The notes under the pieces: generated by a model
Databases searched by the model: none
What the model saw: the letters and a program-made list of their open reading frames with translations, nothing else
What the model was told of the DNA's origin: nothing
Program-made: the position numbers and the translations under genes
Source of the DNA: Candidatus Scalinduaceae bacterium
GTDB lineage: Bacteria; Planctomycetota; Brocadiia; Brocadiales; Scalinduaceae
NCBI GenBank assembly: GCA_046759445.1
Contig: JBHICG010000044.1
Location: forward strand, 1 to 27,762
DNA: 27,762 nt
Reading direction: 5' to 3'
In this document: piece by piece, positions 200 to 3,980 of the stretch
Numbering within the stretch: the first letter of the stretch is position 1
How the letters are laid out: the number at the start of each line of letters is the position of its first letter

Positions 200-249
200 T
201 TACTATATATAGTAAAAAAACAAGAAAAATATACAATATTTTGTATATT
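200..249. repeat. Two palindromes (candidate operators) upstream of the small RHH-like gene
   Basis: Perfect 16-bp palindrome TTACTATATATAGTAA (200-215); inverted repeat AATATACAA-N4-TTGTATATT (228-249) ending 4 bp before a TTGACA box. AT-rich, so chance cannot be excluded. Confidence 0.4.
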
Positions 250-253
250 ATTC

Positions 254-284
254 TTGACAAATAGTTTTGTTTTTGTTATACGAT
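254..284 (+). promoter_or_regulatory. Putative sigma70 promoter
   Basis: TTGACA at 254-259; -10 is either TGn-TATACG (277-282, 17-bp spacer) or TACGAT (279-284, 19-bp spacer). Confidence 0.45.
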
Positions 285-338
285 GCAAGTAAAGGCAAGG
301 TAAGTCAAAGTAAATTGATTAGATTTGAAAGGTAAGAA

Positions 339-521
339 ATGGGTAAATGTTTGCAGATATACTATGATGAAAAAAGGGATGGAGACATCAAAGGATTGAT
401 TCAAGAATTAAGGAAAACCAAAAATTCTCCTTATTACAAGCGTAGGTCAGATAGCGAGGTAGCTCTGATATTATTAAGTAAGGCACTAAAAAGTGAGGTT
501 AAAAAGTTTAGGGATACATAA
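339..521 (+). CDS. Small basic hypothetical protein, possibly ribbon-helix-helix DNA-binding
   Basis: 60-aa ORF with GAAAGG RBS; N-terminal strand-like CLQIYY, a helix, then S-x-S-E-V-A helix cap as in RHH proteins. Confidence 0.55.
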   Translation: MGKCLQIYYDEKRDGDIKGLIQELRKTKNSPYYKRRSDSEVALILLSKALKSEVKKFRDT

Positions 522-590
522 AATTATGATAAAAGAACACAAAAACAACCAAGAATATCAAGCTAACATTTGGTTTTTTCAAAAATTAAT

Positions 591-784
591 TGAGTACGGG
601 GGTAAATGTGACCGGAGCCTTCATCTCCGCGACTTCAAGCCTCGCCCTCCCGTGTGCTGTCACAGTGTAATCGGGCTTTGCCGTACTCATTTCGGCGGGG
701 GTCTTTCTCCTTTCCCCCCTCGCCAACTGACGGCAGAAGGGCTTTTGAAAGTTAATCTTATGCAAAAAGTCCTTTTCTGCCGTC
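591..784. ncRNA. Candidate structured non-coding RNA (three stem domains), family unrecognised
   Basis: About 59% GC over 591-740 (89/150 counted) in an AT-rich context. Stems: 591-599/681-689, 607-612/659-664, 613-617/625-629, 694-701/717-724, 729-747/763-784. Confidence 0.6.
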
Positions 785-1000
785 GATAAACATCTTATGC
801 TTTGTTTTGATCAATACAAAATCCACTAAGCATAAGGACTTACTATGGTTTAATCTTTACTTTTTGAATCCTATTTGGAGTATTGTGTTATGCTTTTTTA
901 GTAAATTACTTCTATAGAAAAAAACTCTCCAATTTACACATATTCTTAAAATGGAATATTTTAAAAACCAGTCAAAACACAAGTTTAGAAAGGACAAAAA

Positions 1001-2675: not shown

Positions 2676-3980
2676 GTGAAAACCAATCTTGACTCTCCAA
2701 TCCTTCAAGTAGCTTTAGATTTTATAAACTTAAAACGTGCTGTAAACATAGCTAAAGAAGCTATAGATGCAGGAGCCGATTGGCTTGAAGCAGGTACGCC
2801 TTTAATTAAAAGTGAAGGGTTGGATTCTGTCAGAGTCCTTAAAAAAGAATTCCCATCCACAACAATAGTTGCTGATATGAAGACGATGGATGCAGGACGT
2901 ATTGAAATGGAAACGGCAGCAAAGGCGGGTGCAGATATTGCTGTTGTACTGGGCGAAGCATCAGACGGAACAATAAAGGAATGTATTAATGCAGGAAGAA
3001 ATTATGGTATAAAAATATTGGTAGATTTTCTTTCTGCCACTGATTGTACTGATCGAGCTATAATGGTTGAAAAATGGGGAGCTGATTTCATAGGTGTTCA
3101 CACTGCTATTGACGACCAAATGTTGGGATGCTATCCGTTCGAAAGACTTTCAAGAATTTGCTCTAAAGTTAATATACCTGTTGCTGTTGCGGGAGGAATT
3201 AATTCAGAAACGTCATTGTATGCAATAAAATCAGGCGCAAGAATTATAATAGTGGGTGGTGCAATATGCAAGGCAACTGACATAAAAGTTGCTACTGCTA
3301 ATTTGAAAAAGGCAATCCAAGATAAGAAGAGGATAACCTCTAGCCTTTTTAAAAGGGTTTCAAATGGGGATATCCGTAAGATATTAGAGAAGGTTTCAAC
3401 AGCAAATATATCAAATGGGAGTCATCGTAAAAAAGGCATAACGGGATTCCAATGCATAAGCCTTAAAAATAAGATGATTGGACAAGCTGTAACAGTCCGT
3501 ACATATCCTGGTGATTGGGCAAAACCAGTTGAAGCAATAGATAAAGCCGAAAAAGGGGACGTAATAGTAATTGATTCTGGAGGTGTTGGACCCGCTGTTT
3601 GGGGCGAACTTGCAACACACAGTGCTATACAGCGGGAGATCTCTGGTGTTATAGTAAACGGAGCAATTCGAGATAGTAATGAAATAAAGAGCTTGAGTTT
3701 TCCTGCTTTCGCAAAATTAGTAATGCCAAATGCAGGGGAACCCAAAGGCTTTGGCGAAATTGGCATACCCATAAACATTTCAGGAATTACAATCAATCAT
3801 GGCGATTGGATTGTTGGTGACAATGACGGCATAATAGTAATACCAAAGCAGGAAGCAAAAGAAATGGCCAACCATGCAATGGATTGTTTAGAAAGGGAAA
3901 ACCGCATACGCAAGGAAATATCACAAGGAAAAACTTCTCTTGGAGAAGCAATGGAGTTGTTGAAGTGGGAAAAAAAATAA
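2676..3980 (+). CDS. hxlA: Fusion: 3-hexulose-6-phosphate synthase (OMPDC-fold) + RraA/HMG-aldolase domain
   Basis: N-terminal LQVALD, EAGTPLIKSEG, ADMKTMDAG, VAVAGGI; C-terminal G.AVTV, AVWGEL, GAIRD, GDWIVGDNDG. GTG start. Confidence 0.9.
   Translation: MKTNLDSPILQVALDFINLKRAVNIAKEAIDAGADWLEAGTPLIKSEGLDSVRVLKKEFPSTTIVADMKTMDAGRIEMETAAKAGADIAVVLGEASDGTIKECINAGRNYGIKILVDFLSATDCTDRAIMVEKWGADFIGVHTAIDDQMLGCYPFERLSRICSKVNIPVAVAGGINSETSLYAIKSGARIIIVGGAICKATDIKVATANLKKAIQDKKRITSSLFKRVSNGDIRKILEKVSTANISNGSHRKKGITGFQCISLKNKMIGQAVTVRTYPGDWAKPVEAIDKAEKGDVIVIDSGGVGPAVWGELATHSAIQREISGVIVNGAIRDSNEIKSLSFPAFAKLVMPNAGEPKGFGEIGIPINISGITINHGDWIVGDNDGIIVIPKQEAKEMANHAMDCLERENRIRKEISQGKTSLGEAMELLKWEKK

Follow-up and report, generated by a model that had tools for sequence, protein, structure and literature searches.

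A conserved, probably regulatory non-coding RNA behind a small protein gene in the marine anammox family Scalinduaceae

The DNA analysed here (the window) comprises the initial 27.8 kb of contig C44 from a Scalinduaceae genome (G000; 3.6 Mb, AT-rich, 145 contigs). Near its start it carries, in this order and on the same strand, a promoter accompanied by two inverted repeats, a gene for a conserved protein of 60 amino acids, a spacer, and a GC-rich element of about 195 nt which is the subject of this study and which we describe as a non-coding RNA (Table 1). The GC content of the element (590-784) is 0.56-0.59, compared with 0.23-0.30 in both flanks; in windows of 100 nt the values are 0.59 at 601-700 and 0.56 at 651-750, against 0.26 at 501-600 and 0.27 at 801-900. 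This bears out the GC-rich island described in the original prediction, which had been made from the letters of the sequence without database searches. The island had also been described as largely paired, with a 9-bp closing stem, a hairpin with a pyrimidine loop and a long hairpin, and all three stems are found in their places. Folding of the + strand gives -74.6 kcal/mol (z = -4.25), with 1 of 200 dinucleotide shuffles being equally stable. The - strand gives -72.3 kcal/mol (z = -3.71), with none of 200 shuffles equally stable; since the folding energy is similar on both strands, it does not by itself allow a choice of strand.

Table 1 Features of the locus, in window coordinates. R1 is the covariance model of the element, built from 26 sequences (four genera).
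Feature	Position	Strand	Remarks
Inverted repeat 1, TTACTATATATAGTAA	200-215	.	TTACAA-N4-TTGTAA type in relatives
Inverted repeat 2	221-256	.	Core ATACAA-N4-TTGTAT 231-246; arms 221-236/241-256, 16 nt, 94% complementary; abuts the -35 box
Sigma-70-type promoter	254-282	+	TTGACA 254-259, 17-nt spacer, TATACG 277-282
5' leader of the small gene	290-338	+	TTGA-type repeats, GAAAGG ahead of ATG; start inferred from the -10 box
Gene for conserved small protein, 60 aa	339-521	+	Ribbon-helix-helix (RHH)-like pattern, fold unconfirmed; coding signature
Spacer	522-589	+	T-rich TGGT(A/T)TTTT motif 571-579, 9-11 nt ahead of the RNA in most relatives
Non-coding RNA, about 195 nt	590-784	+	Model R1 197.8 bits, E 2.9e-59; single copy in own genome
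Domain 1	591-689	+	P1 closes two predicted arms; RNAalifold consensus
P1, 9-bp stem	TGAGTACGG 591-599 with CCGTACTCA 681-689	+	Closes domain 1
Domain 1, arm 1 (predicted)	600-603/639-642, 608-612/629-633, 614-617/625-628; loop CCUUCAU 618-624	+	RNAalifold
Domain 1, arm 2 (predicted)	649-652/672-675, 655-657/667-669, 659-660/665-666	+	RNAalifold
Hairpin 2	694-724	+	8-bp stem 694-701/717-724; 15-nt pyrimidine loop 702-716 holding CUCCUUUC 707-714
Hairpin 3, long, variable loop	729-784	+	Two-sided pair changes; resembles an intrinsic terminator
Lysine-rich open reading frame (ORF), 44 aa	1001-1135	+	Promoter-like site 933-962; AAAGGA ahead of ATG; covered by RNA-library contigs

When the element is aligned with its homologues, the conserved block extends precisely from the foot of P1 to GCCGTC (779-784), and the DNA on either side is unalignable. 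The mean identity to the window is 88.6% for 591-724 and 65.7% for hairpin 3, where the pairing is retained, while the DNA of the small protein gene stands at 78.6%. Across 26 sequences from four genera, 104 of the 205 aligned window bases are invariant, most of them within 591-724, and the core of the hairpin 2 loop, CTCCTTT, shows no variation at all. The pairing was tabulated from a model-fitted alignment of 30 sequences (29 distinct), which yields 1536 pair cells. Standard pairs occupy 99.2% of these, a share that drops to 44.5-51.9% after the 3' partners have been slid by 1-3 columns. Both sides have changed in 13 cells, which is reached by none of 500 shuffles, and the percentage paired, the number of cells changed on both sides and the covariation score all lie above all 500. 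Of the eight pairs of hairpin 2, two show such two-sided changes, one example being A-U replaced by G-C in seven sequences; hairpin 3 has two such pairs as well, with C-G replaced by U-A in three sequences. In P1, four of the nine pairs vary, each on one side only and in every case to G-U. Within domain 1, the inner helices hardly vary and contain no two-sided change, and the interior of this domain is therefore predicted, while the architecture of P1, hairpin 2 and hairpin 3 is supported by the comparison of the sequences. With regard to the covariation that had been proposed as a check on the element, compensatory changes are thus present in hairpins 2 and 3 but not in the inner domain 1, and two of the five measures fall within the shuffles, as detailed below.

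The orientation of the RNA can be read from the same alignment. G-U pairs account for 215 of the 1536 cells, and on the - strand these would be C-A mismatches. In addition, CCTTTT(T/C) follows the inner stem of hairpin 3 in 28 of the 30 sequences, on the + strand only. The G-U cells and the U run together indicate that the RNA is read from the + strand, as had been suggested from the G-U pairs of the window. Hairpin 3 looks like an intrinsic terminator closing the RNA, as judged from its predicted fold: a run of four to five T follows the inner GC stem and itself lies within the outer stem, the U run being paired to an A-rich stretch upstream and the stem lengthened by GACGGC/GCCGUC. A terminator scan of 150-1250 listed no site, its loop limit of 8 nt causing it to miss hairpin 3.

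Two ORFs overlap the element, at 493-789 (+) and 586-765 (-), and both were ruled out as coding sequences, considering that a frameshifting indel is present within 590-745 in 29 of 29 homologues and that there is no codon periodicity. The variable columns of the 493-789 frame are spread as 20, 17 and 16 of 52 over the three codon positions, and some frame is open across the element in 12 of the 30 sequences, so that chance open frames are common here. The codon-pattern conservation of this ORF, which according to the original prediction would have spoken against an RNA, is absent, and together with the frameshifts this favours non-coding RNA. A more specific possibility is that of a dual-function RNA that also encodes a hydrophobic peptide of 26 aa (590-670, MSTGVNV(T/A)GAFISVTSSLALPCAVTA). 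In 29 of 30 sequences, though not in the window with its TTG, an ATG forms the exact 5' edge of the block, and 21 of 30 keep the 26-codon frame intact. In the remaining nine it is broken (two truncated, seven frameshifted or extended, one of them from codon 9), the variable columns number 6, 7 and 6 of 26 by codon position, most changes alter the peptide, and the ATG lies within P1 with no Shine-Dalgarno sequence ahead of it. We therefore regard such a peptide as improbable, and the element as very probably a real non-coding RNA of the + strand.

The element does not correspond to any catalogued RNA among those searched. Rfam 15 at gathering thresholds gave no match on 590-784, and a permissive scan of 450-950 returned seven matches, all with E of at least 0.34 and scores of 14.8-18.4 bits against cut-offs of 47-90; ARAGORN called neither a tRNA nor a transfer-messenger RNA (tmRNA) on it. 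These scans agree with the earlier failure to match the sequence by eye to tRNA, signal recognition particle (SRP) RNA, 6S, tmRNA or a common riboswitch. The sole Rfam match in the window is a truncated tRNA at the contig end (27708-27762, - strand, 37.3 bits, model positions 18-71), for which ARAGORN makes no call. The size, the single copy and the clade-wide presence of the element recall 6S RNA, which brings a divergent housekeeping RNA to mind, but the 6S, SRP, RNase P and tmRNA genes are each located on other contigs above the Rfam cut-offs (C83, 58.4 bits; C4, 71.9 bits; C2, 278.4 bits; C47, 178.1 bits), which rules this out. A mobile or intergenic repeat of the miniature inverted-repeat transposable element (MITE) type is ruled out by the copy number, which is one full copy in G000 (the other matches are 14-22 nt long, with E of at least 0.65) and one, rarely two, per relative; the element also has a fixed neighbour gene. 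Both explanations can be given next to no credence.

Three further classes were compared. A CsrA sponge of the CsrB/RsmZ type carries many GGA in its loops, while the core of the element (591-724) has a single GGA (615-617), which lies in a stem, and its loops are pyrimidine-rich; the csrA gene is present in the genome. A type III toxin-antitoxin system (ToxIN-like) does not fit either: the element is a single unit without repeats, and its neighbours vary by genus, none of them belonging to a toxin family. A leader of the downstream gene was ruled out, given that the downstream genes vary (an epimerase, a histidine kinase on the opposite strand, or the window's own set). Among the papers found in literature searches on Scalindua small RNA, anammox non-coding RNA and structured RNA motifs of Planctomycetes, no title or abstract opening mentions such an RNA. 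The element represents an undescribed family of non-coding RNA within a known category, the regulatory or structured small RNAs of bacteria that end in a terminator hairpin.

Using blastn, the element was found in 24 of 24 other Scalinduaceae genomes, at 81-91% identity, and in none of 16 genomes belonging to four other families within the order. With model R1, all 27 of 27 other Scalinduaceae genomes searched have it, as opposed to none of 64 genomes of other Brocadiales families, a search for which stricter filters were applied, as they are above 40 genomes; with laxer filters and up to E = 1, none of five good genomes of other families gave a hit. A 16-mer from the conserved core was also searched against 185,579 species genomes, and the matches among those listed are mostly due to chance. 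When R1 was run on 80 loci among these listed matches, nine scored (E <= 3e-56), each over the full length, of which eight are labelled Scalindua or Scalinduaceae and one 'Brocadiaceae bacterium'. The RNA is specific to, and universal in, the examined Scalinduaceae, the marine anammox family. The new non-coding RNA postulated in the original prediction is thus upheld, both by the lack of an Rfam match and by its presence in 27 of 27 genomes of the family against 0 of 64 in other families. Two metagenome-assembled genomes have two copies of the RNA on separate contigs, G013 (L059, L076) and G090 (L058, L075), reflecting either duplication or mixed strains; L075 lacks the promoter pattern, and its small gene is a degraded one (48.8% identity, limited to residues 20-60).

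The gene upstream of the RNA is coding, with an identity of its relatives to the window of 88.0% at codon positions 1 and 2 and of 59.9% at position 3. In 26 of 29 loci it precedes the RNA on the same strand, at a distance of 26-194 nt, and the spacer measures 26-77 nt in most of them. The promoter pattern TTGACA-N16-18-TAnnnD is present in 29 of 30 loci, with a -10 box of the type TAnAnT; a consensus promoter scan missed the site of the window, whose -10 box ends in G. At least one of two palindromes of the type TACAA-N4-TTGTA is found upstream in 28 of 30 loci, and their symmetry is kept as the arms change (CTATA/TATAG in some relatives and CAATA/TATTG in others). The leader can be aligned across all four genera, which is not the case for other intergenic DNA. 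In most relatives it reads GTGACTTGATTTAACTTGAATAGATTTGACGAAAGG and contains three TTGA-type units about 10-11 nt apart; the small protein might bind here.

The relation between gene and RNA is illustrated by natural deletions. The ORF has been deleted in G014 and, separately, in G015 and G020, with different end points, while the inverted repeats, the TTGACA promoter, the spacer motif and the RNA are retained. One deletion type (L049, in G014) and the other (L054/L056, in G020/G015) differ in extent: in one of them the leader and the ORF are gone together with part of the spacer, and in the other a remnant of C-terminal codons survives. The distance from promoter to RNA is 77 or 137 nt in the deletion loci and about 300-480 nt elsewhere. 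The small protein is found nowhere else in G014, G015 and G020, which are 82, 95 and 89% complete, respectively, whereas the control genome G006 gives E 4.5e-39. The RNA of these three species scores 235.7, 228.6 and 226.4 bits with R1. With the ORF lost and promoter and RNA kept, it follows that the RNA and the promoter are under selection and that the small gene is dispensable. The position of the RNA on the same strand right behind the ORF, and its terminator-like end hairpin, would also suit a mere cis element of the small gene's messenger RNA (mRNA), that is, a stabiliser or terminator in the 3' untranslated region (UTR) without function of its own. This is very improbable, considering that three species without ORF or protein keep the RNA at full model score, and that a terminator does not need some 130 near-invariant bases upstream of it.

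The deletions also indicate that the promoter most likely drives the RNA, and we hold it to be likely that the RNA is driven by this upstream promoter. Alternatively, the RNA could be a gene in its own right, transcribed from a promoter within the spacer; the TGGT(A/T)TTTT motif would then serve as an extended -10 box, and the small gene would be a mere neighbour or regulator. The distance from motif to RNA is constant while the spacer varies (26-77 nt in most loci), and the motif is retained in both deletion types. Inspection shows no -35 box 16-18 nt off the motif, however, and no promoter on the + strand was listed at this place by the consensus scan; motif and RNA are split by a 141-nt repeat in G017; and the motif resembles the right half of inverted repeat 2 followed by a T run, so that it could equally be an operator half-site. 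A promoter in the spacer therefore appears possible, although doubtful. The motif itself may, from its sequence, be an extended -10 box, an operator half-site or a processing site. The 141-nt insertion of G017 has inverted ends, and the same genome holds a second copy of it (80% over 130 nt) and a 57-nt fragment.

The 60-aa protein had been labelled RHH, and its sequence pattern does fit this label: the N-terminal stretch is short and hydrophobic, and of the two helices the second is preceded by RRSDSE. The label was not confirmed by comparisons with known families and folds, the RHH proteins of the CopG/Arc/MetJ type (for example PF01402) included. Neither Pfam nor NCBIfam has a family for the protein even at E 10, and a profile search of PDB gave a best E of 1.2. 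The AlphaFold2 (AF2) monomer has a predicted local distance difference test (pLDDT) score of 75, with helices at residues 11-28, 31-34 and 38-59 and residues 1-10 unstructured, and is matched by generic helical hairpins only, both with Foldseek (E >= 2.9) and with VIA-align (Z <= 5.9). The comparison with four NikR-type RHH domains from the same order using hhalign gave a probability of 0.28%, only Y-x-RS(E/D) being aligned. The lead of a protein atlas is TraM (PF05261; score 0.91, 162 shared features), which is weak and below trust level.

The small relatives of the protein number 63 and are 71-100% identical to it, the named ones being from Scalindua or Scalinduaceae. In a phylum-wide sample, which contains no other Scalinduaceae, it was found in 2 of 401 genomes, G000 itself and a weak hit (E 1.3e-4), while a profile search of 1.84 billion proteins returned 33 relatives, most of them 58-85 aa long. 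That the RNA tracks the whole protein family was ruled out by eight metagenome loci with distant relatives of the protein and without the RNA. In four of these eight, the small gene runs directly into a gene with a signal-peptide-like start, and no TACAA-N4-TTGTA repeats were found upstream of the distant relatives at the metagenome loci. By inference, these distant relatives fit a small regulator of the downstream gene. One of the metagenome loci (L209:1675-1990) has long nested inverted repeats, CACCGCTAAGTAAG ... CTTAGCGGTGA, 3' of the distant relative; they are without similarity to R1 and may be another structured element behind a related small gene.

The original prediction had placed the RNA in a cassette of RHH gene, RNA and basic peptide, and had proposed that both flanking small ORFs be checked for co-occurrence with it. 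The upstream gene, linked to the RNA in 26 of 29 loci, does belong with it, although three species lack it. The lysine-rich ORF downstream does not: a relative is found in 1 of 25 loci, in the same genus and with 52% identity, and with the downstream genes varying by genus, the basic peptide was ruled out as a member of the cassette. It is possibly a genus-specific small basic protein. Beyond the pair, the neighbours vary by genus on both sides: the upstream gene encodes a CsgG-like protein or an amidase, and downstream there is an epimerase or the opposite-strand histidine kinase. As the neighbours vary and the basic peptide is rare, the conserved unit consists of the small gene and the RNA, and the RNA is the constant member of a unit of promoter, small gene and RNA. 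Farther downstream in the window, a 434-aa ORF (2676-3980, + strand) fuses an OMP-decarboxylase/HUMPS-type domain to an RraA-like domain, 3' of a 6-pyruvoyl-tetrahydropterin synthase gene.

As to function, we give somewhat better than even chances to a trans-acting regulatory RNA that is co-transcribed from the upstream promoter and ended by the terminator-like hairpin. In such a unit, the promoter with its two inverted repeats would be followed by the 60-aa gene, the spacer of 26-194 nt and, distally, the RNA. Transcription would run from the TTGACA promoter through the small gene into the RNA and would end at hairpin 3, with possible trimming at the foot of P1, and the small protein may act as a regulator. 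The RNA would then act in trans via its invariant unpaired C/U-rich parts, namely loop 618-624, junction 634-653 and loop 702-716, which would pair with purine-rich, Shine-Dalgarno-like sequences of mRNAs.

Data from two metatranscriptomic runs of one study are compatible with co-transcription, and with nothing beyond it. The runs recover 73% and 48%, respectively, of the words sampled from 330-900, and assembled RNA-library contigs cover 49-617, 591-641 and 670-878. Contigs from the two runs extend from inside the small ORF over its stop codon and the entire spacer, reaching 12 and 28 nt into the RNA. In run X2, there is no contig over 618-982, and a further run, X3, gave no contig on the stretch. 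In run X1, a 56-nt contig over 591-641 has a word depth of 91, compared with 3-9 for its neighbours; this depth sums other organisms, is unsuited to ranking genes and was not used as evidence.

Pairing with mRNAs through the pyrimidine loops is put forward tentatively. The invariant unpaired pyrimidine-rich parts are the loop CCUUCAU (618-624), the junction ACUUCAAGCCUCGCCCUCCC (634-653) and the loop of hairpin 2, in which CUCCUUUC (707-714) equals 8 nt of the 16S rRNA tail GGAUCACCUCCUUUCU of two relatives; the tail was taken from the relatives because 16S rRNA was not found in G000. Genome words of 12-14 nt complementary to the hairpin 2 loop exist, three of which sit 4-8 nt ahead of an ATG, in an exact-word search that was exploratory and carries no statistics. 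Anti-Shine-Dalgarno mimicry was dropped as a statistical claim and kept as a hypothesis only. Pairing of the RNA with the leader of its own operon was ruled out, the duplexes in 15 loci having z values between -0.7 and +1.8; in one genus, moreover, UUCAAG has undergone an A-to-G change to which nothing in the leader corresponds.

Several observations weigh against a trans-acting, co-transcribed RNA of this kind. The RNA-library contigs show no strand, ends or level, they could stem from DNA carry-over, and the 12 and 28 nt by which they enter the RNA fall short of a 31-nt bridging rule. The match to the 16S tail is by itself insignificant, at least 8 nt being shared with it by 330 of 5000 dinucleotide shuffles. 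A search of the genome did not detect Hfq, and about 130 nt are near-invariant, stems included, which exceeds what a small RNA (sRNA) pairing by a seed would need. The inverted repeats are intact in the three species without the small protein, which may consequently not be their binder; as the repeats persist without it, another factor may bind them. In G017, the 141-nt repeated element (L050:1710-1850) stands between the spacer motif and the RNA. The eight metagenome loci with distant relatives of the small protein have no such RNA, the best R1 hit having E 0.09 with filters off. Regarding the structure, the number of two-sided pairs (4) is reached by 49 of 500 shuffles and that of further pair types (23) by 330 of 500, no two-sided change occurs in the inner helices of domain 1, and the alignment is fitted to the model, with 30 sequences that are close kin.

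Some of these points are shared by a different explanation, according to which the RNA acts as a folded object (a scaffold, a protein sponge or a ligand-binding RNA) and the whole of 591-724 is its functional surface. The 104 invariant bases are spread over stems and junctions alike in four genera, the core is better conserved than the adjacent protein gene (88.6% compared with 78.6%), the pyrimidine motifs CCUUCAU, ACUUCAAG and the consensus UCUUAC recur, and the lack of a detected Hfq fits as well. On the other hand, the small protein is dispensable for the retention of the RNA, a sponge for CsrA is not indicated by the lone GGA in its stem even though csrA is present, and no Rfam riboswitch or ribozyme model matches. 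Since stems and junctions are near-invariant, we give a folded object about the same weight as mRNA pairing, which means that it is rather unlikely when taken alone. The same low probability applies to its strongest form, a new class of autonomous structured RNA of marine anammox bacteria whose core of about 130 nt is a surface that binds a ligand or protein or is catalytic. If this were true, the RNA would be tied to a trait of Scalinduaceae that freshwater Brocadiaceae do not have, and its controlled promoter would have outlived its own small gene.

Returning to the trans-acting regulatory RNA, the closest parallels can be drawn with sRNAs of the RsaE/RoxS type, which are Hfq-independent and block ribosome-binding sites with C-rich unpaired motifs. 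The likeness lies in a stand-alone RNA with unpaired C/U-rich loop segments, a terminator hairpin at its end and family-wide conservation, and in that Hfq was not found here; the Scalinduaceae RNA differs in being about twice as long, in its near-invariant branched domain of 99 nt, in its occurrence in Planctomycetota and in having no Rfam match. With sRNAs derived from 3' UTRs it shares its place downstream of an ORF of like orientation (in 26 of 29 loci) with no terminator between the two, the end hairpin, a conservation higher than that of the ORF and the sharp start of this conservation, while here the ORF has been lost in three species and the RNA is the constant part of the unit. 6S RNA (RF00013) is similar in length (about 190 nt), in being present in one copy and in occurring in every genome of the clade, but the genome has its own 6S on another contig, and 6S RNA is a rod with a central bubble where the Scalinduaceae RNA consists of three separate modules. 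Orphan structured non-coding RNAs such as raiA and OLE likewise combine a multi-stem fold, high conservation that includes the junctions, a narrow lineage and no known function; none of their models matches the Scalinduaceae RNA, which is smaller than most of them and has a small gene as its fixed neighbour.

The Scalindua group is part of a guild that is perhaps responsible for about half of oceanic nitrogen loss, according to the abstract of PMC7438415. The RNA described here is suited as an entry in an RNA family catalogue and as a marker sequence of the family. It is probably a regulatory RNA, and to our knowledge the anammox bacteria of the Scalindua group have no representative in pure culture and their gene regulation is almost wholly unexplored. 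The deletions of the small gene amount to a natural genetic experiment which points to the RNA and its promoter as the selected parts. An RNA that is present in all examined genomes of the family, was found in none of the sister families that were searched, and exceeds the adjoining gene in conservation provides a handle on the lineage-specific regulation of these organisms.

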